The notes: generated by a model from the letters alone, not told the origin. A stretch of 64,000 nucleotides of DNA from Psilocybe cubensis (GCA_017499595.2 CM038999.1:2232001-2296000), one strand, 5' to 3'. Positions 37,301 through 64,000 are shown, counted from the first letter of the stretch. Numbers and translations: made by a program.

Positions 37301-37905
37301 ATTAAATGCATGGTCAACTACAATACTCATCCAGCAAATACCAATCACTACCCTGTCTCGACAACAATTGACATAAAATGCAAGATTGCAAAGCTAACAC
37401 TCAAGAGAAACTTTCAAACTACAAACTGGCCATGCTTTAGCAAAACTCTCGAAAAGTCATTTGAAAAACACAAAGACCAACTGACACTCAACTTGGCAGA
37501 AGACATAGACAAAGTGGTACATATGCTGACCACTACTTTACAGACCACTATCAAGGAAGAGGTTACATTAAGGAAACCCCTTCTAGAGGCCAAAAAATGA
37601 TGGATGAGCAAAGTAGAAGAGGTGAAAAGATACAAAAATTGTCTAAGCAAACTTCATTACAGATATTAAGCCCAACAACACCACCCATGCTATGAGGACT
37701 TCAAGGCGGCAAAAAAGGCATTTGCTTGCATTGTAATCAATGCAAAAAAAACCACTGGAACAACTGGCTGTTTGATGTTGAAGGTGCAGACATCTGGACT
37801 GCAAACCAATACTTTAAGAACTCAATTGGAGACAGCAGAAGACCAAGAATCCCAATTCTGACAATAACAAACAAATATGACAAGCAGAAAGAGGTGGCAT
37901 CTAAT
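34370..37905 (+). mobile_element. Decayed Tad1-like LINE copy 2 (5' UTR, ORF1, APE endonuclease, linker; 3' truncated)
   Basis: Colinear with 28490-30630 (MELPLA.QTYHNGFG in both); APE motifs GNFNHHYPMWD, LDNVF and TNHYP in 36926..37600. Confidence 0.85.
35851..36296. mobile_element. Solo LTR (446 bp) of an unrelated family, inserted in LINE ORF1
   Basis: TGTCAGGA...TCCTGACA termini; flanks CTACT/TTATT (TSD decayed by C>T). Removal restores PSYSKICPTF, matching PSYNRNCPTF of copy 1. Confidence 0.85.
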
Positions 37906-42100: not shown

Positions 42101-43958
42101 TATCTCTGAGAGAGCTGATTTTGACGAAAGGTACTTCTTAGGAGTGTCCACTGGCCCTATGCCAAAGTTTGATCTTCTTCCCACTTCTTCTGCAAGTGCA
42201 CCACCTCCCAATTCAGGGGGGACTCTAATGGCTTCAATTTTGATGATGATGAGGATGACTCTACTCCAAGTCCTATCATTTAGCCAGAAGTGCCTATTGC
42301 GCCTCCTGAACAGCCAGCTAAACCGCCACAGCCTAAGGCCGTTCCTGCACCTTCTCCTAAGCCTGCACGCTGCCAGCGTGCTCCAGTTGATCCTGCAACG
42401 TTGAGACACACTACTCGCATTCCTAAGCAGCCTGGTGAATGGTGGAAGGTCTCACATGATCCTGAACCACCTGAAGCTAATGATCCTGGATTTGAAGAGG
42501 TGGAGTTTGCTGGGCTTGTTTCAAGCGCAGATCCGCGCACATTCAAACAAGCAATGAAAGCACCTGATGCGCACATGTGGGAAGAGGCTGCTAATACAGA
42601 ATTCAATTTCTTGCAGCACAATCAAGCTTGGAAGCGAGTTGAGCTCCCTCCAGGTCAAAAGGCAATTGGCTGTGGTTGGGTCTTTAAAATCAAGCAAAAT
42701 GCAGATGGCAGTATAGAGTGCTACAAGGCTCGTATTGTTGCCAAGGGCTACAGTCAGCGCCCTAGCATTGATTACCATGAGGTCTTTGCTCCTACTGTCC
42801 AAGGCAGATGGACCTCAGAATGGAGATGAGGTGGAATTTATGCGAAATGTTCTCTACCTCAATGCAGTTGGCTCCTTGCAGTATCTAGCCACCATGACCC
42901 GTCCTGACATTGCTTTTACTGTGTCCTATCTCGCACGCTTCAACTCCAATCCTGGGCCTAAGCATTGGGCTGCGGTTAAACATTTATTCCGCTACCTCAG
43001 AGGCACTCTGGATTACAAGTTGACTTATTCTGGCGCTGTGGGCCATGATAACTTTGTCACCTACACTGATGCTGCACATGGTAATTGTGTAGATACTGGA
43101 CGCTCTACAAGTGGTTATTTGACCGTTCTAGCTGGAGGTGCTATTGGCTGGGCAAGCAAACTCCAAACTGTTGTAACTCTGTCTACTACTGAGGCAGAGT
43201 ATATTGCTGCGGTGGAGGCAGCCAAGGAGATTGTGTGGATGCCCAATATCCTTGAGAAGTTTGGCTACACAGTTACTGAGCCCTCTGTGCTGCATATGGA
43301 CAACCAGTCATCTATCAGTGTTTCCAAGAATCCAGAGCACCATGGACGGATGAAGCACCTTGATTTGCGCTATTATTGGCTTAGGAATGCTGTTGGTGTT
43401 GGAAAGATTTCTCCTTCTTATATTCCTACTGATTAGCAAGCTGCTGATATTCTTACCAAACCCCTCTCACCTCCTAAAGTGGACTTTTGTAGAGATAAAA
43501 TGGGTCTCAAACTTTAATATTTCTTTCTCTGTTTTGCTTTATTTTTCTTTGTTCTGGAGACTTGTCAGAACAGGGGGGAGTGTTAAAACTGCTCTCTATG
43601 TCTCCCTCACTTTGCTATCTTATCAGATTAGATTACTTTCTTTTTATCTTCATTTGCTCTCCAGACTATTCTAGACACATGATATTTATCAGTCCATAGA
43701 CTGGTCTAGACCGGACTAGAGTAGACCTAGGTAGACCAGAGTACTTGAGTCTACATAGTATATAGTCACTCTAGTTTACATCCTGAAGTCCCTAGTTACT
43801 CACTTCAGACTTCAGGTTAGTTTGTTAGCACTTTGCTCAATTCACTCAGTTACTCACTTCGGACTTCAGACGCTTTGTGCTCGCTTATCCCTGCGCCCTA
43901 CATTCTATAACTAGGTTGCCAAATAGCTCACACTGCCCCGAGCTTGCCTGCTTCAACA
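39191..43958 (+). mobile_element. Two-LTR degenerate copia copy (LTRs 39191-39568 and 43581-43958; TSD AGTCC)
   Basis: AGTCC at 39186-39190 and 43959-43963. Retains integrase HHCC (WHRRFAH...CEPC) and SDLKGP. A 572-bp RT deletion at 42796/7 removes YIDD; many stops. Confidence 0.96.
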
Positions 43959-45398
43959 AGTCCATATTCCACTCACATTTCTTACGGACAAGTTCTGTGC
44001 CTGCAGAAATGGAATATCCATGGACGCATTCAACGATCCACTTACAGTAAATACAACTACCGGTCAATTAATCACATCATCCAAAACATTGTCTACAGTA
44101 GGAGAAACTGAACTCACCTTTGACAAATGGCACCAAGCCTGGAGACAACTATTACAACTCATTTAACAGTACATGCCAGATGAATACAATGATTGGAATC
44201 AGCACTTTACCCAAATCCAAGACGCAGGAAGTTGTTCCAAGCACTAGCCTCTTTGGATTGCATACAACGCAGAAGTGCATCAACAATCAGTAGTTTCAGG
44301 TATTGATCCCAAAGAACATCACATTGGTTTATGGAATGACTTAGAAGTGCGATACAACAAAAACCAAATTATAGAGGCAATAAATCACAAACAAAATCCT
44401 TGCACCTCACATTCCAACTACAATCAATAGTTGTCATTGCGCTACTACCCTTATCAAAACCAAAACCCAAATACACCTAACACTTATAGATCCAGCGGAC
44501 CCTCTTGATCCTTTCCGAGATGCATCTTCTGTGGATCCAATGATCATTCCTCAAAGAGATGCACCGCCTTCAGACTCATCAATGAAAATCCCTGCCACAT
44601 CCAGAAAAACAGTCAGGCCAACGGAGACAACACATGAAGAGATAAAAACGGCAAAACATATTGCTTTAGCTGGAACGGAACTTGCGGCTGCACAAATAGT
44701 AACACACAAAGCTGCCACTTTGGCCAATATCTCTGCTTATTATGCAGCTCCTCTTCCCACAATGCACAATCATATCAACTCTGATTTTTTACTAATAAAA
44801 ACACCATTTAATCCCAACGCCTGGAAATCAACCCTTTGTCATCATGGTATTCTAGAAATCTTTAATGATGTTCCATTCAATATTAAACACGGATTCAACA
44901 TGGGAATTAAAACTACATCTTTTGAAACTTATACACCACCTAATCATACATCAGCTCTCAAACAACCACACGCAGTACTGTCACATATACAAAAAGAGCT
45001 ACTATATGGTTGCTATACCGGCCCATTTTCACGTTTAAGATTAGAGCTTCTAATAGGCCCGTTCAGAACATCACCACTTGGCATTGTTCCAAAAGCTGGC
45101 TCAACCAAGAATGAATTCAGACTTGTTCAAGATTTTTTATTTCCTAGAAACAATGTACACCACAGCTCCGTCAACTCCGAAATAAATATAGATGAGTTTA
45201 GATGTGATTGGGGAACATTCGACCAAATTGTTGAGCTTGTCCGAGATGCACCTCCTTTTGCAGAAGCGGCAACTCTAGACATAGATTCCACCTTCTGATG
45301 CATTCCAATCCAACCATCTCAACAATCAAGCTTTATTGTTGGCTAGAACAATCTATATTATATAGATCACGCCGCACCCTTTGGCGCATCAAGCTCAG

Positions 45399-45779
45399 CA
45401 CTTCATTGGACTGAAAAAAGTAACCTGAAGGCCCCCAAAAATGAATATTCATGGTAGCCTTCAGGCATGTTAAAAACTATATTTCCATAATGTTTTATCA
45501 AAAAAAAAAACTTAAAAATTATTTTGCATTTCTGATCTTTCTGTGTGACAAAAGTTTTTTACTGTCACACAAGAAAAACAATCTGTTGCTAGGGAGAAAA
45601 TTTTATGCAAACAATAAAACTTTTATATTAGATAGAGGTGTCTGGGGGCTTTTCTCTTGGTTAGGGTTAGGGTTATAAAATTGTCCACAAGAAAATTTGC
45701 AGTTTAAAGCCCAAGACAATGTATATTAATGCTTTGTAGCCTTGGCCATATTATTACAAACTATATATTAATGCATATG
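45399..45779 (+). repeat. Left TIR (381 bp)
   Basis: Reverse complement of 61825-62205 with one visible mismatch (near 45766); mirrored identical 75-aa ORFs lie 52 bp from each end. Confidence 0.96.
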
Positions 45780-47021
45780 ATTCTATATACTCATGTATTA
45801 TATTCTAGCAAGATATATATTTATCAATAGTAAAACTATAGTATTGCATTCCTGCAAGATACACCACTTGGAAACTATGTAGATTGGACACTAATTTGGA
45901 AGCATAATATGCACTAATTTATATTGCCCCACCAGCCATGTAAACAGCCATGTAAAACTATAACAGATGATATCAGGTTTAGACTAGTTTTAAAGTTTAT
46001 ATATCAGATAATATTACTATTTGGGTCTTGCATAGCCTGGTATAATGTTGTAAGATAATTAATTGTCTGACTATCAAGTTACAATGTCATATACTATAGG
46101 TAATCAGTTGTTCGGATTGGACATACATTCAAATTGATGGCCACTTACCATTGGTCAACGGCAAAATTATAACCTCCAAGTTGCGCCAACTATTAATAGC
46201 TCATAGAAATGCCATGCCACTTGTTAATTCAGATTGATGGCAATTATGGGAGGCAAAAAAAAGTTGGTTTGGACATTCATTTGTACTACCCATTTCCTAT
46301 TTGTTTTCTTTGAATTTTTTTCTATTTTCATGCAGATAGTATACATTAGAATATATGTACCAATTTTTATGAGAAATGGAGCACAGGATCTCAAAATTCA
46401 AATCAGTATCCAATCTGAACAACTGATCATCCATAGTATTCCAGTCATTGTCTAATATTATAACTAGAAAGAAGAATGTAGAATGTTTAAGTAAAAATTT
46501 GAAGTTGTAATTTTTGCTATTGACTAATGGTAATTGACTATTAATTTCAATAAATGTTCAATCCAAACAACTAATTACCCATAGTATATTGGCAATTTGT
46601 GATTTTTGCAATACAAACAAGTAATTATGCACTTCATAAAAACTTTATTTGTGCTTTATATAACTTTTATAAATTACATATAATACTTTTTGGTATATAT
46701 AAATTGTTTTGCAAATCATTTCAAAGATATAATACAGTTTTTTATATTGCATAATATTTTACAGCCTATTTATAATATATTTAAAGCCTGCAATTATATT
46801 TTAATACAATGTAGAATACTTTTCAGGCCAGAAAAATTAAATAATCTTTTATATATTTTACCACACACTTTTTGGTAGCTACAAATTATTTTGTAAACTT
46901 ATTCCAAATAATATAAAATAGTTCTTTACATTGCATAACATTTTAAAGCCAAATTACAATATATTTAGGGCGCTCAAAATTGTTTACTAAGAGATAAAAT
47001 TGATTTTATAGTTTCTGTAAT

Positions 47022-47247
47022 CTTTTACAAGTTAGATTAAGTGTTTAGAAAGTGCTATAAATTTATTTCATGAGATATAAAATAGTTTTGTCTGTCTACA
47101 AAATCTTTATGGCATATGTACAAAATATTTCTCCTTTTACAAGTTAGATTAAGTGTTTAGAAAGTGCTATAAATTTATTTCCTGAGATATAAAATAGTTT
47201 TGTCTGTCTACAAAATCTTTATGGCATACTTACAAAAAATATTTCTC
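47022..47247. repeat. Tandem duplication, about 112 bp x2, in the AT-rich left arm
   Basis: CTTTTACAAGTTAGATTAAGTG at 47022 and 47134. Confidence 0.85.
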
Positions 47248-47747
47248 ATTACAAAAAATATTTCTCTGGTAAGAAAATTATTGCATAAAGTTATACATGG
47301 CCCCATTTCATGTTGTATTCTATACAAGAATTAAACCAGACTTCATAATTTTGAGTATTCACACTTTATTACTGGCTTGGCCAGTGTTCTAGAACATGGA
47401 AGAGTGGAAAGTCAAAGACTTTGATATTGACCATGCCATGAGCACAGTCCGCCCCCAGCGGCGCTTCCCCAGTACAAAACAAATACAATATATTAGACGG
47501 TAGATCACCAAAACATAGCATAGACATGAATAAAGGAGGCAGCTAGAAAGATTAAAAGGAGATCAGAAAAGTATATACCCTATTAAAGATGAATGTAGAA
47601 AAGTAGAAAAACTATGTGCAGTATAAAGATTAAAAAAAAACATATTCGGCAAAGCAAAGTATATACAAATGCGGGCAGAAAAGAAAACAAAAACAGAATA
47701 CCTCTTCTCTAAGTAGACAACCCCACGCCAATTGCTACAAATTACAT

Positions 47748-50700
47748 TCACTTCCTGAAGACCTCGTTACTAGGACCAGCCATTCCTTCTTGAACATATC
47801 TTTTCTGATAGAAACGACCTGACGGAACCGGCGGGGAAGAATCATCAATAACAATTGTAGCCGGGCGGTTAGATGGGCGGCGAGCAGATGGCGGGCCTTC
47901 AGATGGGTAGTAAAACCCACCAATTTCGGGACGAGATGGCTGCTGCTGCTGGATAGGCCGTTCACGGGGCTTTGGGTCCCCTAAAGCCTTGTAGTAGGCC
48001 TGATACTCTTTGGGGACCTTCTGCTGGACATCTTTTCCAGATTGCTTGGAATGATGCCCTGTAAAATAATCCCGCAACTCTGGTGTATCATGCATGCCAT
48101 TTGGTCGATGCCCTTCACGGTAACGATAACCGGGCAAACCTTGGTCGGTCGGCTGGGGCTGGGGTTGGCGGTACTTCTCCGACACCTCCTGATACTGATA
48201 CAGTTGTTGTCGACTTGGCTGTTCTTGACGGCGTGGAAACTGATCTTGACGTTCATCGTGCAGCCTCCGTTGACGATCAGGGCCATTGCCGGGGTCATCC
48301 GCTGGCCTCTTCTTTGGAACCTCCTTGTGGACAACTGCGATCTCGGGATATTCATGCCCCATCTGGTACAACTCATTTGGAAATCCTTGAGGCTCAGACC
48401 GAGGGGTAATGATCCGATACTTCTCGAATTCGAAACAAGCAGGCGAAGACGCGGGCAATGGCTGTGGAGCAGGGGGAGGTGGAGGGGAAGGAGGTCCAGG
48501 AGGTCCAAGAGATGGATCGCGCCATTCAGGAGGGCTCGCGACCCGAAGGGTTTTGGACGAGCCCTTCTTTTTTCGTGGGTGTTTCTCCTGCTTGGCGACT
48601 TTGCAATCTCCAACTCGATACAATGCCCCTTCCTCGCGATTATCCTTGCCAGTTGTTGTGACGAGAACAATATTGTCGTAAGCTTCAGATCCAACCTCTG
48701 CAGCTTTGTCCTCTGTAACAATACATTGGATAAATTTATTAATGTTAAGAATGAAGCTGGATCATACCATCTGTCCATGCGACAAACTGGAGCCGTTCAC
48801 TGAATGGTTTAGAGAACGCCGAGATGAGTTGGGAAAGCTGTGTTTTGCCGGTGACAGAGAATTTGGAGTACTGTGGGTAGGGGACCCCCTTTGGATAATA
48901 AACCAGGCAGTATTGATGGTCTATGGCCCTTGCAGCAATCATTGCCCAAGAGAAATTCCCGCGGTTAAGGATCAAGTTGGCAGGAACAAATTTCACTAGG
49001 TATACAAAGTGACTGTTTAATGTCTGAAGGTGAGGAAACACAAAACACACATACAAGATTCATTGACGAGAACGAAAACCACAAGTTGACGTATGAATAC
49101 CACATCACTGTCTTGGAGCTTTTCAAGGGATTGCGTCGCAATTAAATCTGTCATAAAGTCCTTCAGAACTTCATCGGCGAAATACTTATCATTTTTCAAT
49201 CTCCGTGGCCCAACATTCGACGTATCTTTGGCTTTTCCTTTGCCTTTGGAATTGGACGCCTCGGCTTGAACATCGGCCTGTGTGTCCCGCTGTGACTGCA
49301 ACTCATGTGGTGGTTGTTGTCGTGAAGCTTTGGTCTGTTTTGAGGGACTGAGGATGTTGTTATTGGTAGGCAGACCCAACCGTAAACCTTGCGACAATTT
49401 GTTCTGAGAAAATGATGCTCTGAAATCAGGAATTAGTTACACAAAACATGGTAGTTACAATGCAAACTCACCGGCAGATGTCTGAGAAGACATTGCAAAT
49501 TTCATTGACAATCATCCCTTGTGTCTTCAGCATTGTTTCGACAATGTTGCATGATGCAACAACAGAATTCATCTGCCGTGCCGTTTGATCCTCGCCAAGG
49601 TAAAGGATGAAGGATACCAATCCCACTTCCCTATCCATAAGAGATGTCAAAACAGTCTGATGCAGAAAAGGATACACTTCAATAAACACTACTCAAAGAA
49701 AGAAGTCGAAAGCTTACACGATCGCGGGTCTCATCGATAATATCCTTGACTCTTGTTGATGCTGGCTTAAGACAGTCAAGCCTGAGTGACATCTCAGCTA
49801 TGGCCTCCTTGATTTCCTTACGGAACGCTCTGATTTCCTCCTCTGTGTGTCGATTTGGATCCATTCTTTCCTTGTAGGTACTTTGAGCAAGATCTTTAAA
49901 TTTCACATCTGTATTATCCTCAGTAATTATCTCTTATAACAATGAAACAGAGCGTACACGTCTCATTGTTAAGCTCTTTGCTGCGAGCAAGGCAGGACTG
50001 AAAGTCATTCCAGATATTGCCTCTTGGTGTGGGCAGCTCGATCTTGCAAAACTTTAAAGCAGTATTGAATGATATGTTATTTTTCTCTGCATACTTTGCA
50101 ACCTCTGCCTTCATTGCCAAACCAAGTTGACGACCTTCTTCCTTGCACTTCATGGAGACACGTTTTCCAATGCGAGGGAGGATGCCCTTGGTATCGCTGT
50201 CGTCCTCAGTCGAATCTGTGGAAGGACTGCTGGAACCCCTCATCGATGGTGCAGGGTAAGGGTTGGGCAGTGCAGGGGTGCCCGCTGCTTTTGCTGGGTG
50301 ATGGGACGATGCAGACAGGGCTACAGAGGCTGGCGTTGCTTTTGCTGGGTGATGGGACGATGCAGCCAGGGCTGCAGGGGCTGCCGTGGTCTTTGCTGGG
50401 TGTTTGGATGATGCTTTGGGTGCCGCGGGGGTGCCAGTCACCTTTGCTGGGTGATGGGACGATGCAGGCGGGGCTGCAGGGGCTGGCATTGCCTTTGCTG
50501 GGTGATGGGACGATGCAGGCGGGGCTGCAGGGGCTGGCATTGCCTTTGCTGGGTGATGGGACGATGCAGGCGGGGCTGCAGGGGCTGCCTTGGTCTTTGC
50601 TGGATGTTTGGATGATGCTTTGGGTGCCGCGGGGGTGCCAGTCACCTTTGCTGGGTGATGGGACGATGAAGGAGGGGATGCAGGGGCTGGCGTTGCCTTT

Positions 50701-51265
50701 GCTGGGTGATGGGACGATGCAGGCGGGGCGGCAGGGTCGTATTTGGGGTGACTGGACGATGTTGGCGGGACTGTAGGGGCTGCCAGTGCCTTTGTTGGCT
50801 GTATGGATGATGCTTTGGGTGCCGCGGGCGCTCCAGCCGCCTTTGCTGTAAGGACACTGCGCATCGATCTCCGCCTCGGTTCTTTCTCGGGACTTGAGAC
50901 CACAACCTCAAGCTGAAGATCGCAATCCTCAGACGCGTCCTCCATTTCTGTGTCCGATGCCAACCCATGACGAATATTAGCGCGACGACGCTTCGCTTGT
51001 GCTCTGGTTTGAGCGAAGTCAGAGCCACTGTCTTCGCTGTCATCCATGGCATTGTAGCGCATCATCTTGCGAGTCAGCGCCGAGGGCGCAGTCCCTTTGC
51101 CCGAGAAGATGGCGTCGTCGTCGACTTCATCCCGGTCCCCATCCACATCACTGGACTGCAGCTCATCATCTTCCTCGTCGCCCTCGTTTTCATCATCTTC
51201 GTTGTTGTCTTCTTCTTCTTCCTCCTCCTCCTCCTCCTCCTCCTCCTCCTCCTCCTCCTCCTCCT

Positions 51266-51296
<31 letters not shown>

Positions 51297-52881
51297 TTCC
51301 TCGTCGCCTTCGTCTTCCTCGTCGCCTTCCTCATCCTTGTCGCCTTCCTCATCCTCGTCGCCTTCGCCTTCGTCCACTGCCTGCAACGGGCGCAATGCTT
51401 TGCGAGGGAGACTGCTGGGGGGCTCTACCTTCGGAGAGGGCGGTTCTTTTTTTACTGGAACATGTTTTCTCAGCTTGGACTGCGCATGTTGAGCGGGTTG
51501 AAATGGCGATGGCGGAAGAGGTTCCATGTCCGATGTTGGGACCTCCGCTTGCTCCAAGAGAGTATTGGCCTGGTAACGTAGAACTCTGGCCTCCTGCTCA
51601 AGGCGGTCTGCGGCAAGATCAGAGGCTGGGAGCATATCTTTTTCGGCTTGTGCTCGAGCTGCTCTGGCATTCTGCTCCAGAGACACAGCGACAACCGCAA
51701 CTGCATGGGCACCTTCGCGACGATCTGCCCTGGTCAAGACTCGCCCTGGAACCTCTTTCTGCTTCCCTTTCACCACCTTGCGCTTCACCTCCTCCGCATC
51801 GCTCTTCAACTCTTGCTTCACCTCCTCCGCATCCCTCTCTACCTCCTGCTGCCCCGCATCCCTCTCCACCTCCTTCCCCCCCACGACCCTCTCCGCCTCT
51901 TGCGCCTCCCGCTCCGCCTGCTCTGCCATCATACATTGGTGGTCTATTTCCATCTGAATGCGTGCTTGCTCCGCCCGTGCTGCCATCCTTTCTGATCCGC
52001 TAGGGTCCGTGTCCGTGTGAGAAGGACTCGAAGGGGCACGCGTTTTGTAAACTCTCTTCTTCGTGCTTTTCGGTAGCTTCAACCCAGACATACGAATTCT
52101 AAATAAGTGTAAGCGATACATCAGAGATAAGTGACAAGAAAACAATGTTTTGACGCGACACAAGTCAGCGAACAACAGAGGAAATGCGACATAAGTCAGG
52201 AGGCGACATAAGTCAGCAAACAGGGCAAATGCGACATAAGTCAGCATTTGTGGTTGCAGAGGCGACATAAGTCAGCCTCAAAGCCTCGATAAGAAAGTGT
52301 TCGCGACATAAGTCAGCGAACAGGGCAAATGCGACATAAGTCAGCATTTGTGGTTGCAGAGGCGACATAAGTCAGCCTCAAAGTGGCTTCAAATAATAAA
52401 GGTAATCAAATTGACTTACCTTTCCGAAAGAGACAACATGGGAGGGTCAGGTGAAGACTGCCTCGCCAAAATGGCATCGGCAGCCTTGTATAGCTCAGCG
52501 TTGGGGGAAACAATCTGCACCCCCTTCATTGGAAAAGGCTGCAGGACGCGTGGCGGTTTAGGGGGAGGCGCTCCGGCTTTGACGTCAGGCAACGGAGTAG
52601 CAGGAGGGGGTGGCACGGCTTGCTCAGTGGGTGCTGGGTTACCGCGAGCAGCAGGAGGGGGTGGCACGGCTTGCTCAGTGGGTGCTGGGTTGCCGCGCTT
52701 TCCTCGAGGGCCCCGTTTAGCTCGTGGTGTCGGTGCCGGGACAGGTGGAGGAGAGGGCTGTTGTTGCTTTTTCCTCTACAGACGCGACTGAGTGCATAAT
52801 AAAAACGCAAAAAATAGAGAAAAAATGTACCTTGGAAAAGCGGGTGGGTTCACTATCATTCTTTCGCTTCTTGGGGGGCAT
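47748..52881 (-). CDS. KDZ cargo gene 1: predicted 8-exon, about 1493-aa low-complexity, probably nuclear protein with a possible degenerate HMG-box-like region
   Basis: Exons 52881-52831, 52775-52420, 52098-49958, 49908-49718, 49656-49472, 49419-49055, 48995-48768 and 48712-47748; all introns GT-AG and frame-consistent. Starts MPPKKRK; long D/E tract; PAAPPASSHHPAKA repeats; GNIWNDFQ...KFKDLAQSTYK. Confidence 0.8.
50270..50850 (-). repeat. Coding minisatellite (about 48-bp unit, PAAPPASSHHPAKA)
   Basis: TTTGCTGGGTGATGGGACGATGCAG and close variants recur about ten times. Confidence 0.85.
51160..51375 (-). repeat. (GAG)n/(GAC)n trinucleotide tract encoding poly-E/D
   Basis: (TCC)n and (TCG)n runs on the plus strand. 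Confidence 0.9.
52155..52377 (-). repeat. GCTGACTTATGTCGC motif array A (about 8 copies) inside predicted intron 52099-52419
   Basis: GCGACATAAGTCAGC repeated on the plus strand. Confidence 0.9.
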
Positions 52882-53321
52882 TATTCAACTGTAATTTTGG
52901 GGGGGGAGTTGGTTAGCATGTCGCCAACGTGGTTAAATAGCCCAAATTTTCCTATCGTAATGAGAAGCACCTTTCATTAATGAGATCGGGCAAGTAACGG
53001 ATGAATATTGAAAGACATTACCTCATTATGTTTTGCTCTGCTCGATGTCTAGGTAGAGGGAATGATACTCAAGTTAAATAAGTTATGTGGGATAGGATGA
53101 ACAACTGGGCAGCATACCTTCAACAGTGCAATGTATCTTCAACATTGAGCTCAGGTATCTATCTTCCTATCCCCTATTCCGTCCCCCTGTTCCGTGTAGC
53201 GTAAAGGATCGGTCGCGGTTTCGGAGTGATGGTAGTACCGTATGATTGGCGGGAAAGGGTTGTCGGATCGCATGACATAAGGTTCGGGGAATCTGTAGAA
53301 ACAGAGTGGAGTTATCGAGAT

Positions 53322-53541
53322 GGACATAAGTCAGCCCCCAGTGGCAGAGGACGACATAAGTCAGCCCTCGGAACGGTGGCAGAGGGCGACAAAAGTCAGC
53401 CCTCTGAAAGGTGATAGAGGGCGACATAAGTCAGCCCTTTGGAAGGTGGTAGAGGGCGACATAAGTCAGCCCCCAGGAAGGTGGTAGAGGGCGACATAAG
53501 TCAGCCCCCAGGAAGGTGGTGGAGGGCGACATAAGTCAGCC
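53322..53541 (-). repeat. Motif array B (7 copies, mostly 35-bp period)
   Basis: Copies at about 53322, 53351, 53386, 53421, 53456, 53491 and 53526. Confidence 0.9.
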
Positions 53542-53755
53542 GAAAGAAACCAAAGACAAAAGCTTGGTGCCTAACCATGGCGCAAAAGCCGTTGGTAAAC
53601 AAAGCCCAACAAACTGGCGAAACTTAGCAAACTTGGACTTTGCCGTTCGCACATCCAGTAAGCACATATGAATTAAAATATATCTTACCTGTAAGTAGAA
53701 TATGAGAGCAAATGTAAATATTTTGAATGAACTTGGAATGCTTAAGAAGTATCAC

Positions 53756-53849
53756 AAAAGTATCGTGGTCAACTGGAATCTCATGTTCGTTCCAGTGACC
53801 AGCAAAAGTATCGTGGTCAACTGGAATCTCATGCTCGTTCCAGTGACCA
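53756..53849. repeat. 48-bp tandem duplication, each unit an imperfect palindrome
   Basis: TGGTC(A)ACTGGAA...TTCCAGTGACCA twice. Confidence 0.85.
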
Positions 53850-54470
53850 CTCTCGTCTTGTCTCGCCGCGTTCGCTCTTCGCTCCCCCTCTTGATCCTTC
53901 TGTATTTACACGTAATTTTCAGTTTTTTTCCAATTTCTTCTTGTTCTATCATTCTATTCGTCTATCCAGTCTTTCCTTACATTTCTCTCCGATGTGGTTT
54001 CTGTCAAACTCCCTTTGACTCAGATCTCCTTGAATGTATGTATTGTATTCAAGTCTCTACTTAACTAAATTGCCAGTAGTAAGTAGCTAGTTTCCCTCAA
54101 CAAATTAATGAAATATTCCCCTGCCCGTCTCGCCCACAACATGTATGATTTCACTGCCAGTCCAGTCAGATGGTGTTGAAGTTCACTTATCTTATCTTAT
54201 CTCTCCATATCTTATCTCCCCTATCTTATCTATTCTTTGTCATAGATCAACAAACACGTAGGGTGTTTGTTGATTCTGCCTTGCGTTTCCCACGGACTTA
54301 TCTTTCCTTCAACGTTCACTCAGTCGTGTTTCCTTGCTTTCGTCGTTTTCGCTTGCTTTCATCGTTTTGGCTTGCTTTCATCGTTTTTGCTCCTTTTTTT
54401 CCTTCTTATCTCAGATCTTTTTCAAAGGTGAGTCTTCTTCCACAACTCTTCCACTCCCACCTTCCTGGGG

Positions 54471-54697
54471 GCTGACTTATGTCGCCCCCTACCACCTTTC
54501 AGAGGGCTGACTTATGTCGCCCTCTACCCACCTTTCAGAGGGCTGACTTATGTCGCCCCCTACCACCTTTCAGAGGGCTGACTTATGTTGCCCCCTACCA
54601 CCTTTCAGAGGGCTGACTTATGTCGCCCTCTACCCACCTTTCAGAGGGCTGACTTATGTCGCCCTCTACCCACCTTCCTGGAGGCTGACTTATGTCC
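54471..54697 (+). repeat. Motif array C (7 copies, 35-36-bp period) inside predicted 5'-UTR intron 54428-54726
   Basis: GCTGACTTATGT at 54471, 54506, 54542, 54577, 54612, 54648 and 54684; AG|GTGAGT donor and CTACAG|ATG acceptor. Confidence 0.9.
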
Positions 54698-54726
54698 ATG
54701 TCGATAACTCAACTTTGTTTCTACAG

Positions 54727-57148
54727 ATGCCCCGCACCACGAAACCTCCTGCTGCCTCCACTGACACTGACTCCTGTATGAATCTTTGTCTTGGTCTATC
54801 CGTCTTGACCCACAATGTCGCTGATAATCTTAGCAGTTTATATTGATGCATTTGGCAGAAAACGCGATGCTGTCACCCATCGAGCAATCATCGAAATATA
54901 CGAAGGAAAGCATTGTACGTAACTTTATTGCTCAGTGAAGAAATTTTTATCATCGATGTATTCTAGCTTATTCTGCCACGGATGCTCTGGCAATGGCAGA
55001 ATTGTATAAACTGCCCTACAAAATCCCATCGCTGGATACCAGTTCTTTCACTGGGCTCGATGCCAACAAACATCCCTACCCCTCATCTTTTTTTGTTACC
55101 TCGCCAAATATGTACAAAATACCTGACATAACAGAGGACTCCGAGGACGTCACCATTCGAACAGATGGCCGCTACGGATACGGCGATTTCACATTGTGTC
55201 CACAGTGGTACTTTCAGGGCACTTACTATCTCCCCTACGTTAGCCGCAAGCCATCACTTCTGTCCGACTGTCCCTATGCTGTCATGTGGTACAATTTGAA
55301 GGAAACCGACTTCATTCACAATCAAACTTCCATTGTCTCTGGCATTGGACGTATCCGTTCCGACCTCCTTGAAAAACTCATTTCTGCACGTAAACAACTC
55401 ACTGCCAAGGCTCGTGAACTTGATAGCGACCCCCGCTTCACTTATGTTCAACTATCAGAGCTACGCTACAGCCTTCAATTGCTTCTATTTTCTACAGTGG
55501 CACTGCAATGTGCCCCGCAAAACTACACGATGACTTTGCTCACCTTCACTGGTTGCCAACGCCATTACTTGGAGGCACTGGCTTGCTACGATTTTTTGAT
55601 GAAATACCGAGATATGGAGATCAACGAGTCGGTGAAAGAAGTCCCGGTGAATGACAGGCTAATGGGGTGCTTGACCACCTCTGTCGAAATTGCTACGGAG
55701 ATGTATTATTGAGGAGTGCCCGTGTGGTTGTTTAGAAAAGCAGAGGATGTATCTATGGAAACGACAGTAATTTCCTCATCGCGCATGTGCCCTATCCGGA
55801 ACATCGTCCTTGAAAGAATGCCCGGCGCAAATGTTGTCTTTAAGGGGGATGCCAGTGCGATTCGCAATCGAGCTTGCCAAGCTCTAAAAGTTGGTAATGT
55901 TCGCCTCGGTCATAGCGCGTATATGTCGCATCCCGGTGAATTTGCGGCGCCGCCAAGTAAGTTCTTTCTGCCCAGTATAAAAAAGTTGTCTTCGCTTCCT
56001 GACTTTCCTCGACTCCCTTCTCAGACCGTCAAGTTATTGCGGCCTACAATCAACCCTGTTCCTCCAGCTCTGTGCCACTGGCCCGTCATCCTGAACCTAC
56101 GTTTAATACGACCTCTAATCTCGCTCGCCCTGCGCAACAAGTTTCACGCCCAGAAGTCTTGATGGTGCCTCAAATGCGATATGTTTTAGAACCCATATCA
56201 GTGAATTTTGTGAAGTTCTCTTACACTCCTCTGCCCAGTTGGCCGTCTGCTAATACATCCTGGGTCAATGCATTGCATCAAGTGAGGATTGATCCTTACA
56301 GAGTATGGGACCACGGTTTTCTGGATTCCTATCGTGGCTATGCGTTCTTTGATCCTCACATCCTTCTTGGAGAAGACTGGGACCGGGCACGCGGTAAAAC
56401 GTATCTTTTGGCATGGCTTGCAGTTCGCCCGGCGTGGATGGCAAAGATGATCAACCCGACTGTTCATCAAGAGTATCCACAACCGCAATCTTGGAGGGAC
56501 TTCCTTATTTTTCACATCGCAAAGCTTTTGCGGGTGTCTGATCGCGACGTCAAGTGCAATCCCGACCGTTCCATCAGTGGTCCAAACAAGCGCCGCAAGC
56601 AAGGCAATCTCATCGCTTATTTTGACCTTCCTGTGCGGAATTATCATAATACAACGCAGATTCGCTGGAGAGATGACGATGTAGGCTATGCTGGCTCTCT
56701 GGATGTCGAAAGCATGGTTATCAAACCTTCTGTCCCTCGTGAAGTTGTTTGGGATCTTTTTGAACACAATTTCCGTTTCGAATTGCTTGCTCTTGATCGA
56801 TCCATTTTCCCTCGGCACCTCGTCAGCGATCAGCTCTCACTTGCTCGGGACACTTTGGTGACAAATTGCTTCCCTCAAAATGCACTTATCACTGTACAAT
56901 GGCCGGAACGTGATGAAGGTCTGGGGGCACGGAGATACCAGGACCGTGTATTATATGTGGAGTCACTGCGCAAGCTCATGTCGGATTGGCCAGGCTCTGT
57001 AGCAACGGCTTTGCGGCGCATGTCCCTTTCGCCCAACAGCACTGAACAACAGGTACTCGATGTTGAAGCAATAGCTTTCCCCTTCTATTGCCAAACATTT
57101 TTCGATTACTTCGGGCGTGCCGCTACAATTCCTCATCACAGGCCCTGA
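54727..57148 (+). pseudogene. KDZ cargo gene 2: uncharacterised globular protein with one in-frame TGA at 55710-55712
   Basis: Predicted introns 54776-54833, 54915-54966 and 55957-56024 join the 239-, 148- and 358-aa ORFs in frame; the frame continues GVPVW after TGA. Motifs DGRYGYGDF, WDLFEHNFRFELLALDR, FYCQTFFDYFGR. Confidence 0.75.
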
Positions 57149-57498
57149 GTGTCTGCGGGTATTTTGATTTCTTGCTGTCAGTATCATTCAACGCAGTCAC
57201 TTTCATTCAATGACATATTTACATGCTAACCCTTCCTTTTTAGATTTCATTGTATATATCATCATTGTTTTGGGATGGGATCCCCCTTTTTGTATGTATC
57301 TATCTTTGCCTGGATCCCTTTAATGTCATTCTTTGTGCGGAGTGCAAATTCCGCATTCCGCCTTTTTTATAGAATGACAGTTCGACACCTGTGGGAGTCC
57401 TTGTAAGGCGTCACATATATATAACAATAAAGGTAAGACCGTGCTCCTTTCCTTCTTTTTCCCCGTCCATCAAGGTCTCCTTGCTCTCCAAACAACAA

Positions 57499-60400
57499 AT
57501 GCCTCGCAACTTCCGCCGTGTCAGAAACCAACCGCCTTCTTCACCACCTCCTGTTGGGCATTTCTTGCCATTAGCAGAGGTTCTACCGCTTCGTCACCCC
57601 TATGGCACAGCAACGCAAGGTCTTGCATTGGAACCGCAAGGTCTGCTGTATGGCCCAAGTGGAATTTTTTCCCAGCCATTGGGGGTTACCGATATTGCAA
57701 TTCCTCAGCAACCAGGCTTTGTGAATGATATGAATATGGGTGATTTGATTGAAGTAGATGAGTTACACAGTGTTGATCCCGAAAGAGCTGCAAAGAACCA
57801 GCGCCTGTGGCAGATGTGGAATGAGGTTATGATTCCCAGGCTTATGAAGCCATATCTCAACACATATCGTGAAACGTCGGGTATGCGTGCTCCAAACCGC
57901 GTTCGGTACAATGTCGGGTGCCAGGGTTGCTCCAATGGTGGCCTTCTCAAAGTGTCTTGCATCTTCTTTGAAAGTACGTCAAATTGATTATGGATCAAGC
58001 TGGTATAGGAGGTCTTGACATGTTATTAGGAATTGAATGCATCACACTGTGTACCTGTACTGAACCTGCATTGCAGTTGATGCAGAGAGGGTTCTTTCCT
58101 TGTGCACCAACACAGCCTACTCTTGCTGTAGATCTCAGTGTGCTGGATTTTGTGCAAGAATTGTTTACCAATATGGCACCAAACACTGTGGGATGGTGCA
58201 ATACTCTTGAAGCATTTTTAAGTTCTCGTAATTTCAAATTAACTACAAGGGTATGATGAATCTTATCTACTACTAATATTGTAGGCTAATGTACTCACTG
58301 CAGAATAGTCTCCGTGATAGATTTGCCTCTGCCATGAAATGGTATGCTACTCTCGTCAACCGGAAAGATTTGTTGATGTTCGATTATTTAAATCGTGTTC
58401 GAGTATCAGAATTATTTATTATGGAGAATAGTGAGTTTAACATTTTAAAATATAACATCTAACTAATCAATATCAATAGATCCTAGTCCAGATCAGAGTG
58501 CTTATGGTCATTCCACAGTTACAGAGTCAGAAGAGGATGACATAAATGAAGCTAATAGTCCTCACACCCACACTATGGATGTAGATGCAGACAAAGATGA
58601 TATACCAAATGATAATTCTGATACTGGTAGTAATACCGGTAAGTGTACAAAATACTTTTGCAGTTTATTAGGACTAAAATAAAACCAGATGATTCACTTA
58701 CTCGTCCAAGTGAATACCTTCGAGAACGCTGTCCATTATGTTTTGGAGGAGAAAATTGGTATAAATCTGAAGATTTGTATGTTTATATTTTACAACTTGA
58801 CTTCAAAACTAACATTGTAATGGAAGGGTTGATGCAATTGTTTGCATTGATGCCTGTTTTACTCAAAAACGTCGCAAATCTCGAGGTCATGCATGGGCAG
58901 CACCACATATCCATCCACAAACAATTTTTATTTCTGAAGATGAGGTTAAGGATGTGGAAATTACTGTTGAGCAAAAAAGATCTAAAAAATCCAATAATAA
59001 TATGGAAAATAATCAGACAGCGAATTCTGGAGATGCAGAATTTGAGCCTGGAATGAAAATTCCAATTTCAGTTCTTGATGGATGCAATGAATCTTTTATT
59101 GCAGCAGATGAAAGACGTATTAAAGCAAGTACTGCTTTTTTTTCAGATACAGGGCTTATGGGGCTTCTTTGTCGGCATGATCGACCTTTATGGTTGGTTA
59201 ATATGACTTCAGCAGGTGAAAAGCAATTTTATGCTTTAGCATTAATTCAGAAGTTATTTGAACACATTCCTAATACCATGCGAATTGGCTTATTGTATGA
59301 TATTGGGTGCCAGCTGCATCGTAGCTGTGTTAAATTTGGTTTTTTAAATAATATTCTTGACCGAATTGTGTTTGGAATATCTGTATTTCATGCATATGGC
59401 CATCAGTGGGCCTGCCAAATTGTCTATCATCCACGTAAATGTGAAGGTTTTGGCTTGACAGATGGTGAAGGATGTGAAAGATTCTGGAGCTTAATTAAAC
59501 CATTAATTCCATCATGCCGTGTTTCTGGATATTTTACCCGTCTCCATACTATTGATACCAAGATTAAAAGTCTTGATTACTCATCTTTGCTTAGTATGGG
59601 GACTTGGCTTCAGCGCAAATGGAATGCTATGAATGCAAAAAAATTTGAAGCAGAAATAATTCTAAACAATATGGAGCAAAATGGATATACAAAGGATTAT
59701 TTGGCAATACAATGGAATGAACAAGTTATTTACCAAACCAAGCCTCTAAAAAAGCAATCTAAAGCTTGGGCAAATAAAGAAATTGAAGAAATTTTACTTT
59801 TGTCTCAAAATTTGGATACCTATAAAAAGGAGTGCAACAGATTAGAGTCAATGATTGAGACTGGAATATATGAAGAAAATATTACACTATATATAATCCA
59901 AGAAAATTTGGAAGAGCTACAGGAGAAAATTAGCAAAACCAAAAAGGCAATTAGCAATAAACGTGCAAAACTATCAGTGGATGGAAGACTCAATCTTACT
60001 AAATTGCTTAATAATGAATTTTTAAAACTGCGAATGAATGCTCTTGCTCTTAAACAACGTATACGTGATCGCTTACGAATGCGGAAATTTGAGCTTGAAA
60101 ATATGGAACGTGCATATCGATCATCCATAAATGAAGCTAAATTACAAAAACATGTTCATCAACAAATCAAACGAAAAGAGCCAGGTATTCAAAGTTTGGT
60201 CAGAAATTATAACAAAGCCTGTGTTCAACTTGAAAGTATGATTGCACAAAAAAAAGCACCACGTGGTGCAATAGCACCTTTGCCTATTATTATGGAAGGA
60301 CTTTTTAAGCTAGATGTTGATGATAATATTTGGCAAGATATTGGCTTTGATGATGATGAAAATGAAACTATAGAAATCCCAGATTGGCTTGGAAAAGAGG

Positions 60401-60882
60401 ATGTCAGAAAAGGCATAAAAGCATTATTGGAATATAACAGATGTATTGAAGAAGAAAGAAGATTAATTGAGGAAAAAAAGTCAATGATTCAATGGTTTCG
60501 AGAAGAGTGGGTAGTTATTATCAAAGCAATTGGTCAAATGTCAGAAGATATAAATGTGCTCTACCAATTAAAGCAAAGAAAACAATTTCTTTTGAGATTG
60601 TATTTATCCTGGGAACTTCCTGTACGTGGAATACCAGGTGAAAACAATACATTATGGGGACCAACAAAGGAGGAAATCATAAAAGCTAAAAAATATGAAA
60701 CAACACAAAGTGTTCTATATAAAGAATATACAAATGAGGTTGCTGATATTGAAATGGAATTAGAAGATGACAATGAATATGAAGATGAACATGATAATAA
60801 TGATGATGTGATTACAGATTTTGAAGATGGGGATGAAGCTGAGCTTTTGGATCAAATTGAAGAAGATTTGTCCACATTATAA
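57499..60882 (+). CDS. KDZ transposase with CxC1-like cysteine cluster, 6 exons, about 1041 aa
   Basis: Exons 57499-57973, 58030-58250, 58304-58430, 58480-58638, 58689-58776 and 58827-60882 (3126 nt, open). Motifs QLMQRGFFPCAP, LRERCPLCFGG, CIDACFTQKR, LCRHD, GEKQFY, YDIGC, FHAYGHQWAC, GLTDGEGCERFWS. Confidence 0.93.
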
Positions 60883-61587
60883 AATATTTAATTTACTAAG
60901 TTTCTTTGTATTTTTATAAAAAAAAAAGTTATGGCAATATAAAATTATTGTAAGAGGTCAAAAAAACAATATATGTGATGTATAAAATCAATTTGTAATC
61001 TAGATAAATAAATTTATGATACTAAAAAAGTATTGATGTCAAGTGTAAATTAATTTATATGCTAAATAAGTAATTTATAGCATTCAAAACGTATTCTGAA
61101 TATACCATAAAATATTTAACTTGTATAAAACTAATTTGGGATTCCATAATGATTTGTAGGCATTAAAAATATTATACATAACTTGTAGAACCCTAAACCC
61201 TAAACCCGCAAAATCATTTTACTCACATAATAAACTAATTTAAACTCCATAAAATCATTTTACTCATATAATAAACTAATTTAAACTCTATAAAATTATT
61301 TTGTGGCCATTAAAATGTTATAGTTAAACTTGTAAAAGATTATATGAACACAAAATAATTTTACTCAACATATAAAATATTATATAAACACAAAATTTAT
61401 AGCCCTATAAGTAAAAGCAACAACTAGGCAATGCCATACATTGTAATATATAGAAATTTGTATTGATATATTTATATTTATAGTATAATATTGCTTATAA
61501 AAGTAATAATATAAAATAATAGTCTTAGTAGATGCAATCATACACATTAATGTGTAGTTTATGGTGATGTGGCAAAGGTTGCAAAGT

Positions 61588-61801
61588 ATTGATATATAGT
61601 ATTTAGGATTTCAGACTGCAAGACATCTTATAGGATTATGTGCATGGTTACTATTCGAAATCTTGTTTCTTATAGGATTATTGCTCGGTCAATAATTGAT
61701 ATATAGTATCTAGGACTTTAGACTGCAAGGCATCTTATAGGATTATGTGCATGGTTATTATTCCAAATCTTGTTTCTTATAGGATTATTGCATGGTCAAT
61801 A
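61588..61801. repeat. Tandem duplication, about 107 bp x2, next to the right TIR
   Basis: ATTGATATATAGTAT...CATCTTATAGGATTATGTGCATGG at 61588 and 61695. Confidence 0.85.
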
Positions 61802-61824
61802 TTCCAAATTTTGATAAATGTAAC

Positions 61825-62205
61825 CATATGCATTAATGTATAGTTTGTAATAATATGGCCAAGGCTACAAAGCATTAATATACATTGTCTTGGGCTTTAA
61901 ACTGCAAATTTTCTTGTGGACAATTTTATAACCCTAACCCTAACCAAGAGAAAAGCCCCCAGACACCTCTATCTAATATAAAAGTTTTATTGTTTGCATA
62001 AAATTTTCTCCCTAGCAACAGATTGTTTTTCTTGTGTGACAGTAAAAAACTTTTGTCACACAGAAAGATCAGAAATGCAAAATAATTTTTAAGTTTTTTT
62101 TTTTGATAAAACATTATGGAAATATAGTTTTTAACATGCCTGAAGGCTACCATGAATATTCATTTTTGGGGGCCTTCAGGTTACTTTTTTCAGTCCAATG
62201 AAGTG
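61825..62205 (-). repeat. Right TIR (381 bp)
   Basis: Inverted copy of 45399-45779. Confidence 0.96.
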
Positions 62206-64000
62206 AGCTCAGAAGGCGTTTTTGGTCGGTCAGCAGATGCACTTATGGCAATTTTTTGTGCAAAAGGGATAACGGCATGTAACTGGGTAGACAACTTTGT
62301 TTTCTTCCGCCTAACATAGGTGCTCAACAATGAAACAATTAGCAAAAGCAACAATATGACTACTAACATTTTCTCATCCTATACCCTTGACACAATCTTC
62401 TCAATAACTTTGCCCTTAGGCTGGCCCTGGAAACAGTCTAAAACAAAACCCTTCTCATAAAACTTTCAATACCTTGGTTTTATCTGGAGCCTACAACATA
62501 AAACAATCAAAATACCATCCGAGAAGAAATCCAAATACCTAGCAAAAATTGCAAATTGGACCAAAGACGACCAAAAATTCTTGCTTAGAGAAGCAGAATC
62601 ACTCTTTGGCATCTTAGTACACTGCTCATTAGCCATCCCGGAAGGACGTTTACGCCTTCCTGCCCTATCTCGCTTTGTTACCTCCTTTTCACATACCACA
62701 TCCATCCATGCCCAATGAACACCTGGAAAACTCACACTCAATAACATTAACTGGTGGAATGAATGTTTACAACATGACTTCTGTGGCTCATCCTTAACCC
62801 CATCACCGCCACTAAGCCCAATAGAATTCTGGGTTAATGCATCAACAGACTGGGGAATTGGGCTTGTTTTTAATAAGAAATGGTAATCATAGAAACTAAA
62901 ACCACACTGGAAATTGAACGGATGCAACATTGGCTGGGCTGAATTCATTGCCATTGAAATAGGCCTATTATACACTATCCATTCCGGTTACACAAACACT
63001 TACTTTTTGATTTGCTCTGACAATCAAGGTGTCATCCAAGCTATTGAAGGAGGAAAATCACGCAGTCCCGAACAAAACAAAGTGTTACAATAAATTACAT
63101 CCCTTCTTACCACTAATTCATTATGGATAAAATCCTTATACATACCTTTAAAGCAAAATATTGCAGATGGACCTTTGTGTGGATTTTCCTTACCATACTT
63201 ACCTCGATCCAAATTTTTTTTTCTTTTCCATACACACTTGAACCCTTTCTACTATCTTCTTCACAAATGTTAGCATAGATAACCACACTTCGTAAATCCA
63301 TACATATTAATCCTCAATAACCCAATAATATTAAAATTAAATCAATGCACAAAATGAAATACAGCACACTCAACAATCCGCACACATACCAAACAAAGCC
63401 AAAGTAAACATGCACCGTTGTATCCACACCTCTTTCCAAACACTACACAACCTATTACCAACGGTGCGTTCTTCAGAATTTACATCTGTCTCAACCTTCA
63501 ACCCGGCCTCTTACCTATCCCTTAAAAAAACTTCATACTTTACTTCTGATGACTTTTCTCTTGTACCAGCAAACCATCAAAGCTTTCCTCTCAAACAACC
63601 CCAAAGTTTACCACCTAATTGACCAAACCCTTATAGCTTCCATCGCAGAAAGACCTTATCAAAGCAAAAAACACACCATACTACCCAGCCTACGTTATTT
63701 GATTGGTTACCTCTGTGACAAGTTGCCATGGCCCATAAATTCTCCAAGAAAACCCATTAACAACTTCAAAACGCACTTGCCCACAGCTAGACCTCATCCA
63801 CCTTCAACAAATACTCTAACTCTATTCAACATTTTCAAACATTCTGTGAACTAGAAGGCGTCCCAAACCACAAATGCTTCCCAGCAAACAAGTTTGTACT
63901 ATGCACCTTTGCAGCATCCGGTGCAGGCTCTTCTTCCTTCTCAACCATCCGGAACAAGATTACCGCCATAAAAGGCTGGCATGACTTGCATGGGGCACAA

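Follow-up and report, generated by a model that had tools for sequence, protein, structure and literature searches.

Giant KDZ transposons have been described in Cryptococcus neoformans, where the elements KDZ1-KDZ3 are experimentally mobile (bioRxiv 10.1101/2024.08.15.608186; PLoS Genet 2026, PMC12810828). Among the families described by Kojima 2025 (PMC12730594), Kyakuja elements have a 7-bp target-site duplication (TSD) and CA..TG termini, and the Dileera family Zisupton-1_PGr has a TSD of 8 bp. The Laccaria Kyakuja families in that description are without inverted ends and carry a TET/JBP gene, and TET/JBP is also reported as the sole accessory gene of basidiomycete Plavaka elements in a preprint on red-algal transposons (bioRxiv 10.1101/2025.02.11.637652). 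Here we describe an element of this size class in Psilocybe cubensis. It lies inside a window of 64,000 nt (GCA_017499595.2 CM038999.1:2232001-2296000), the whole stretch of DNA that was analysed, and all coordinates are counted from the first letter of this window. The element proper spans 45399-62205 (16,807 bp). It is very probably a cut-and-paste DNA transposon of the KDZ superfamily, and besides its transposase it has two large genes that diverge from a central region. One of them, which we call ORF1 (for open reading frame, ORF), belongs to a protein family that precedes the transposase in three types of transposons, suggesting that it may be a cofactor maintained by the transposons themselves.

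The element is flanked by two copies of a 7-bp TSD, AGCTCAG, read from the sequence (45392-45398 on the left and 62206-62212 on the right), and these 7 letters fit either side of the joint at the empty site described below. The left terminal inverted repeat (45399-45779, plus strand) starts with CACTTCATTGG and the right one (61825-62205, minus strand) ends with CCAATGAAGTG. In a direct alignment 45399-45779 pairs with 62205-61825 over 381 nt with one mismatch, and the arms diverge beyond this point; a repeat finder gave the inverted pair as 45399-45789 and 61815-62205 (391 nt, 99%). The termini are CACTTC...GAAGTG, i.e. CA..TG, and with the 7-bp TSD they make the ends Kyakuja-like. Each inverted end also contains the telomere-like sequence GGTTAGGGTTAGGGTTA (45659-45675 and 61929-61945), which amounts to two and a half TTAGGG-type units.

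The transposase gene (57499-60882, plus strand) was read in silico as six exons with 1041 codons and no internal stop: 57499-57973, 58030-58250, 58304-58430, 58480-58638, 58689-58776, and 58827-60882. The predicted exons sum to 3,126 nt in frame, and the introns are all GT-AG and 49-56 nt long. The ORF at 58813-60882, which holds the last exon, matches the Pfam family KDZ (PF18758) with an E-value of 1.1e-60 and 205.5 bits over profile positions 2-217 of 217. The N-terminal zinc cluster CxC1 (PF18802) was found on the second exon (58029-58253; E 4.2e-10, 40.1 bits, cutoff 26.9), and CxC2 scored below its cutoff. All three parts of the transposase that were searched have relatives, with 45-63% identity, in 20-21 metagenome loci. 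Thus the catalytic domain, the CxC cluster, and a TSD with an empty site all place the element in the KDZ superfamily. A first-pass annotation, made from the sequence alone, had described a complete and precisely delimited KDZ transposon with 381-bp inverted repeats differing at one position, an intact spliced transposase, two large divergent cargo genes, and AT-rich arms bearing repeats. Its coordinates, 45392-62212, correspond to the element plus both copies of the TSD, the alignment reproduced the repeats, and the Pfam matches confirmed the superfamily. The transposase is intact in the sense of an open in-silico model, and the divergent genes and the arms, which have 23-28% G+C and local tandem duplications, are as described. 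The word complete is not strictly true of this copy, because ORF1 has an in-frame TGA at 55710-55712 that the first-pass annotation did not note.

The stretch is contained in eight public sequencing runs from three studies, four of which (X6, X7, X8, and X11) were compared over 44000-63900. In all four, base 45391 is joined directly to base 62206, so that 16,814 bases are missing; 7 letters at the joint are ambiguous. The joint is carried by contigs in X6, X7, and X8 and by 9 raw Illumina reads with 8 start places in X11. Since 16,814 bases equal the element plus one copy of the TSD, the joint is precisely the empty site. One contig of X8, 7,209 bp long, spans 44000-45391 and 62206-63900 contiguously. 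In X11, counting reads at 90% likeness or more, no reads cover 46656-59271 or 61264-61927, the depth in 59272-61263 does not exceed 0.3 per strand, and the flanking bins (44000-45327 and 62592-63900) have depths of about 14-17. The X11 strain, which has the same organism label, is therefore without any copy of the element. Furthermore, one contig of X8 enters base 45399 from other sequence (loose end 45398) and one contig of X7 leaves base 62205 into other sequence (loose end 62206). The same termini are thus joined to other flanks, and the element is present at other sites in these genomes. Compared with the window, the element pieces have no differences over 14,205 bp in X6 and 27 over 13,382 bp (0.2%) in X7. 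The empty sites in four runs, the full absence from X11, and the different flanks found in X7 and X8 show that the element is young and moved recently. The first-pass annotation had called it young and potentially active and proposed a search for empty-site polymorphisms, and the joint in four runs and the junctions at other sites bear this out. Both cargo genes are missing from X11 together with the element, so they are not ordinary single-copy genes of the host.

Two further observations concern the variation among these strains. The substitutions between X8 and the window are skewed (184 C>T and 211 G>A vs 43 A>G and 36 T>C), and those of the other three runs are balanced; some X8 copies appear decayed in the manner of repeat-induced point mutation (RIP) or of 5-methylcytosine deamination. 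In X7, which has a different organism label, the listed flank contig (62294-63061) has 48 differences over 768 positions (6%), compared to 0.2% in the element (54647-61868). The element could be much younger than the split between the genomes, as after recent spread or introgression; otherwise this flank contig is paralogous.

The ORF1-family gene (54727-57148, plus strand) is directly upstream of the transposase gene, which starts at 57499 on the same strand. Splicing in silico gave four exons (54727-54775, 54834-54914, 54967-55956, and 56025-57148) and 747 codons. Homologues from Galerina, Leucocoprinus, and other sources align with it along its full length, and the conserved blocks of the family (..PQWYF.., ..G(V/I)PVW.., ..E.NFR.EL..LD.., and ..FYCQ.FF.YFGRA..) are all present, interrupted by the one TGA. 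The family is large. Of 1.84 billion cluster representatives, 3,098 matched a profile of six full-length relatives at E<=1e-3, and 740 did so at the stricter limit of E<=1e-30. In a word-limited profile search, 13 close relatives came up, all of them named hypothetical. Full-text searches of the literature gave no description of the family; ORF1-like proteins may already be among the gene lists of Iyer et al. 2014 or in Kojima's Table S1 and Data S1.

To see what accompanies ORF1 elsewhere, we used metagenome contigs of the Joint Genome Institute (JGI), in which 72 loci encode ORF1 relatives and 32 have at least 3 kb downstream of the match. In 28 of the 32, ORF1 is followed directly by a KDZ, Plavaka, or tnp2 transposase that lies 0.2-2.4 kb downstream in the same orientation. 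The partner is a KDZ transposase in 17 loci, as found by tblastn with the transposase of the window, and its main exon is 1.5-2.4 kb away (1.68 kb in the window). Three loci (L017, L029, and L033) have a Plavaka transposase (PF18759), all three identified by Pfam. The remaining eight (L048, L064, and six others) have an EnSpm-type transposase (tnp2/Transposase_21, PF02992), two of them identified by Pfam and six by 70-94% identity to those two. These more distant ORF1 relatives stand before their transposases at, for example, L033:6260-11041 (Plavaka) and L048:1524-5214 (tnp2).

The phylogeny of ORF1 follows this division. A maximum-likelihood tree was made from 59 rows of the C-terminal domain (C-domain), after L015 (a duplicate of L014) and rows with fewer than 200 aligned query residues had been dropped; support is given as ultrafast bootstrap/SH-aLRT (Shimodaira-Hasegawa-like approximate likelihood ratio test). 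The KDZ-linked sequences formed a clade with 100/99 support (16 KDZ rows and 6 rows without an assigned partner), the Plavaka-linked sequences a clade with 100/100 (3 and 2 such rows), and the tnp2-linked sequences a clade with 100/99 (14 and 4 such rows). The Plavaka and tnp2 clades are joined with 100/99, and no row with a known partner is inside the clade of another transposase type. A further clade of 10 rows, including L020 and L028, has no recognised transposase nearby. Since the clades match the type of partner, ORF1 diverged in step with its transposase. Such co-divergence is expected of a functional companion and not of a host gene that was captured repeatedly. ORF1 is therefore likely to be a cofactor maintained by transposons. 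The first-pass annotation had inferred that the cargo forms an uncharacterised accessory system for anti-silencing, targeting, or regulation. A conserved module that travels with the element agrees with this in part, but ORF1 is a widespread partner of transposases rather than private cargo, and an anti-silencing or regulatory role is hypothetical.

The public protein model at this locus is P0001 (JR316_0002246 [Psilocybe cubensis]); among named proteins, it alone is 100% identical to a product of the window. It spans 55800-58640 and is chimeric, beginning in ORF1 after the TGA and running into the first exons of the transposase, and its choice of acceptor skips the cysteines of CxC1. The model is mis-annotated because of the nonsense codon in ORF1, and the deposited gene thus fuses two genes of the element.

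The other large gene, cargo gene 2, is a long multi-exon gene on the minus strand (47748-52881) with its start codon at 52881 and its stop at 47748 in the in-silico splice reading. The predicted exons are 52881-52831, 52775-52420, 52098-49958, 49908-49718, and 49656-49472, followed by one that begins at 49419, one within 49059-48748, and a last one that ends at 47748; at least five exons follow the long exon 52098-49958. The N-terminal half is of low complexity. It starts with the basic stretch MPPKKRK and contains a 51-bp unit in duplicate, which has RGPRGKRG-like stretches, as well as an extended run of E/D and nine PAKA repeats of 51 bp. This half is followed by a small domain with the signature PR..WNDFQ and by a conserved C-terminal half. 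The 51-bp coding repeats vary among strains, with a 255-bp deletion in X6 (50440-50696) and a 94-bp deletion in X7 (50222-50317).

Cargo gene 2 has no Pfam match, and at E<=5 its pieces and the analogues from L004, L006, L014, and L001 gave nothing above noise. A word-based protein search with the residues encoded at 49923-50198 (minus strand) had no matches, and neither did tblastn of cargo-2 pieces (four in frame) against the 72 loci at E<=1e-5. In a blastp comparison of ORFs, cargo gene 2 matched ORFs that lie on the minus strand before ORF1 in L004 and L006; these matches are weak and collinear. The two counterparts have C-terminal ends similar to that of cargo gene 2 and match each other over several exons. 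On this thin evidence the three-gene layout would be conserved in the closest relatives, L004 and L006. Related loci resemble complete or nearly complete elements of 13-16 kb and bear inverted subterminal repeat arrays or inverted ends, as in L014, L004, and L006 (repeats of 193 nt at 94% in L006).

Between the two divergent genes a 15-mer, GCGACATAAGTCAGC, is repeated. Allowing up to two mismatches, there are 22 copies in the window, all of them in 52155-54698, and 0.08 are expected. Array A (52155-52376, plus strand) has 8 copies with no more than one mismatch and is inside the predicted second intron of cargo gene 2 (52419-52099, 321 nt). Array B (53321-53540, plus strand) has 7 copies at 35-bp spacing, and array C (54471-54698, minus strand) has 7 copies in the opposite orientation and ends about 30 bp before the start codon of ORF1. 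Together, arrays B and C make up the arms of a larger inverted duplication, and the 0.9 kb of central sequence between them (53541-54470) is a putative bidirectional promoter. Within this centre, at 53755-53849, a 47-nt unit occurs twice at 48-bp spacing, and each unit has a palindrome with 12-nt arms, TGGTCAACTGGAA...TTCCAGTGACCA.

The bipartite motif of the arrays, GCGAC-N3-4-GTCAGC (the pattern GCTGAC-N3-4-GTCGC on the other strand), recurs in L004, L006, L007, L008, and L009. The layout is the same there, with one orientation directly upstream of ORF1 and the other further upstream, and the half-sites are constant while the spacers vary, a pattern characteristic of conserved sites for protein binding. 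Since neither the inverted ends nor the arms contain the motif, we read it as regulatory rather than as an end-binding site of the transposase. The arrays are thus putative binding sites that may control expression of the module.

Taken together, we propose the following model. From what is known of the family, the transposase, with its CxC1 zinc cluster and KDZ catalytic domain, would recognise the 381-bp inverted ends, excise the element, and reinsert it with a 7-bp staggered cut. The element carries a module of three genes, namely the transposase, the upstream ORF1, and the divergent cargo gene 2. ORF1 would act as a two-domain cofactor of transposition. The predicted product of cargo gene 2 is long and largely of low complexity, and it combines basic stretches rich in K/R with one small helical domain that is conserved. 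The inverted arrays, which bracket the central region, would control the expression of the module. The present copy would either have a freshly damaged ORF1 or rely on ORF1 from other copies.

Several points weigh against this model. The assignment to Kyakuja draws on end features only, CxC1 is also found in the Dileera-clade KDZ1 of Cryptococcus, and Kojima's Kyakuja families are without inverted ends, unlike the 381-bp ends of this element. The exons, introns, and promoter are all in-silico predictions. Four of the 32 loci (L020, L028, L042, and L069) are without a recognised transposase, and their downstream ORFs have no Pfam match; in addition, L013-L016 and L052/L053 are near-duplicates, so the locus counts overstate the number of independent cases. 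The homology of cargo gene 2 is weak, with an E-value of about 1e-6 for the PR..WNDFQ domain and 0.018 for an exon with NF.W...WTDG in a database of 6,653 residues. Finally, the in-frame TGA is at codon 292 of 747, in the N-terminal domain of ORF1 and inside the block ..FY-x-G(V/I)PVWLVRP. In the homologues this position is occupied by Q, M, L, K, or A, and the alignment has no gaps on either side, so the TGA is a nonsense codon and not an intron. The X6 sequence is identical at ORF1, including the TGA. This copy has either lost its autonomy or can do without ORF1 in cis.

The nonsense codon raises the possibility that this copy is a dead or non-autonomous relic, which was inserted recently and whose autonomy has since ended. 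Its position well inside the N-terminal domain, the identical sequence in X6, and a public annotation that starts after the stop would all fit a relic. However, no stop interrupts the transposase model, the inverted ends are almost without mismatch, and the same element, 99.8-100% identical, is at other sites in other runs. Moreover, ORF1 may not be required, or other copies could supply it in trans. We therefore consider a relic possible but somewhat doubtful.

A second possibility is that ORF1, cargo gene 2, or both form a self-directed regulatory or anti-silencing system, in which a DNA-binding protein encoded by the element acts on the GCGAC-N3-4-GTCAGC arrays and keeps its own promoter expressed. 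Such a system would stand in for the TET/JBP gene of other Kyakuja elements and would parallel VANC of the plant VANDAL elements or the action proposed for PAG3 of red-algal Plavaka elements. The confinement of the arrays to the centre of the element, far above the expected number, would agree with this, and so would the conservation of the motif class and the layout in five related elements while the spacer letters vary. The C>T/G>A-biased decay of some X8 copies suggests that a silencing or mutating pressure exists. There is also no TET/JBP gene to take this role: by Pfam, neither the 27 ORF pieces tested from the element nor 52 relatives of ORF1 gave a TET/JBP or 2-oxoglutarate (2OG)-Fe(II) domain, and this agrees with the first-pass annotation, which had seen no such dioxygenase. 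In the red-algal giant Plavaka elements, as presented in the preprint, arrays lie beside an accessory gene and self-binding has been proposed (bioRxiv 10.1101/2025.02.11.637652). On the other hand, we recognised neither a fold nor a domain for DNA binding in ORF1 and cargo gene 2, and the motif could equally be a site for a host transcription factor or for CxC1 of the transposase. A regulatory or anti-silencing system is thus an unlikely though not far-fetched explanation. In its widest form, ORF1 would be an unrecognised core protein of KDZ, Plavaka, and EnSpm/tnp2 transposons that, with cargo gene 2 and through the arrays, makes up a self-recognising regulatory or anti-silencing module and a functional alternative to TET/JBP, and we offer this as a speculative proposal of similarly low probability.

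The two extra genes might also be passengers, i.e. genes that the element took up from the host by chance and that play no part in its life cycle. Neither gene has a known domain, and ORF1 is broken here in an element that looks recently mobile, as one might expect of passengers. But both genes are missing from X11, which has the empty site and no element, and cargo gene 2 is collinear in L004 and L006. In 28 of 32 loci ORF1 has its fixed place upstream of a transposase, it co-diverges with the transposase type, and 3,098 representative clusters are as expected of a multi-copy transposable element (TE) gene. Capture by chance is thus largely refuted and very improbable.

We also searched for the fold of ORF1. 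None of 52 family members matches any Pfam model, a sequence profile search of the PDB with ORF1 gave a best E-value of 0.15, and the ESM Atlas had no usable match. An AlphaFold2 model of the relative P0010, based on an alignment of 52 sequences, has a mean predicted local distance difference test (pLDDT) of 86.3 and consists of two domains and a disordered linker. A model of the C-domain from the last ORF1 exon of the window has a pLDDT of 86.9 and a predicted template modelling score (pTM) of 0.84. Both are chiefly helical with few short strands. With Foldseek, neither model had a PDB match at E<=1e-3. Among 48,161 chains compared by VIA-align, the best Z was 6.5 for the whole model, to a helical bundle over residues 118-228 (there was also one match of 128 residues), and a best Z of 4.9 for the C-domain. 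The absence of matches among solved structures would not in itself make this a new fold. A complex prediction of the main exon of the transposase (1-620) with the ORF1 C-domain scored 0.00, which speaks neither for nor against an interaction. That ORF1 is a highly divergent TET/JBP-type or other 2OG-Fe(II) dioxygenase is hardly credible, since these confidently modelled proteins are mainly helical, no dioxygenase is among their fold matches, and no Pfam or PDB sequence matches them, even though Kyakuja elements often carry TET/JBP and PE-type proteins, in the description by Kojima, escape sequence searches and are detected only by structure-based comparison (PMC12730594).

The remainder of the element consists of two AT-rich arms. 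The left arm (45780-47747, 28% G+C) contains a 112-bp tandem duplication (47022-47245), and the right arm (60883-61824, 23% G+C) has a 107-bp tandem duplication (61588-61801) and 41-bp repeats (61210-61392). The arms have no motif in common, as no shared 9-mer or 10-mer has five or more copies in total. The left arm also holds a nested insert of 349 bp (46091-46439) with 45-nt inverted ends, which resembles a miniature inverted-repeat transposable element (MITE). Reads of X11 cover this insert at multi-copy depth, with strand-switch joints, despite the absence of the KDZ element, and therefore it is a separate repeat family.

The element is in a TE-rich region. Five head-to-tail Ty1/copia units (4,714/4,715 bp, with gag, integrase, and RVT_2), which are 100% identical, extend across 1-23.6 kb, followed by an inverted partial copy at 22.7-26.8 kb and a copy of 92-98% identity at 39.2-44 kb (39191-44000). 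The array is either a true tandem retrotransposon array or an effect of assembly. In the AT-rich part at 27-39 kb there is a LINE-like (long interspersed nuclear element) sequence with an ORF (36893-37600) that has an endonuclease/reverse-transcriptase match (Exo_endo_phos_2). No Rfam families or tRNA genes were found in the window.

Similar to Kyakuja elements as described by Kojima, the present element has a KDZ transposase, a 7-bp TSD, 5'-CA..TG-3' termini, and an Agaricomycete host. It differs from the families known there, which are without terminal inverted repeats and have AG-type TET/JBP, in its 381-bp repeats, its module of ORF1 and cargo gene 2, and its lack of a TET/JBP gene recognisable by sequence. 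The red-algal giant Plavaka elements reported in bioRxiv 10.1101/2025.02.11.637652 are of similar size (17-19 kb), with conserved accessory genes (PAG1-3) and internal inverted-repeat tandem arrays beside an accessory gene. Their transposase is of another superfamily, and the methylase, SET, ParB-like, and 2OG domains of PAG2/PAG3 were not found here.

The reported KDZ1-KDZ3 of Cryptococcus are likewise giant (9-11 kb), with inverted ends of 139-241 bp, a transposase with CxC1 and KDZ, and extra ORFs without known domains, including two genes of unknown product in KDZ1. They have TSDs of 8 bp (4-8 bp) and Dileera-clade transposases, compared to 16.8 kb and a 7-bp TSD here. Giant KDZ elements with long inverted ends and ORFs of unknown function are thus already described and mobile in Cryptococcus, and the accessory module is the interesting part of the present one. 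The element documents, at the level of populations, a giant KDZ transposon of an Agaricomycete that has moved recently. Its ends, TSD, and empty site are exact, and it could serve as a reference for the annotation of such transposons. If ORF1 is indeed a cofactor or a countermeasure against silencing, it would fill a gap in how abundant fungal transposons work and would explain thousands of hypothetical proteins of mushrooms.

CACTA/En-Spm (TnpA and TnpD) and PIF/Harbinger (a Myb-like ORF1 and a transposase) are two-gene transposon systems. The two-protein layout of Harbinger/Nuwa is also mentioned by Kojima (PMC12730594). ORF1 of the present element differs in that it has no sequence or fold similarity to TnpA or Myb/SANT proteins, and its role as a cofactor is inferred. 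The likeness is that a second, non-catalytic gene stands beside the transposase and co-evolves with it, and that relatives of ORF1 precede the transposases of both EnSpm-type (tnp2) and Plavaka elements. The ORF1 family is associated with three lineages of transposases that were formerly linked to one another only through the capture of TET/JBP.

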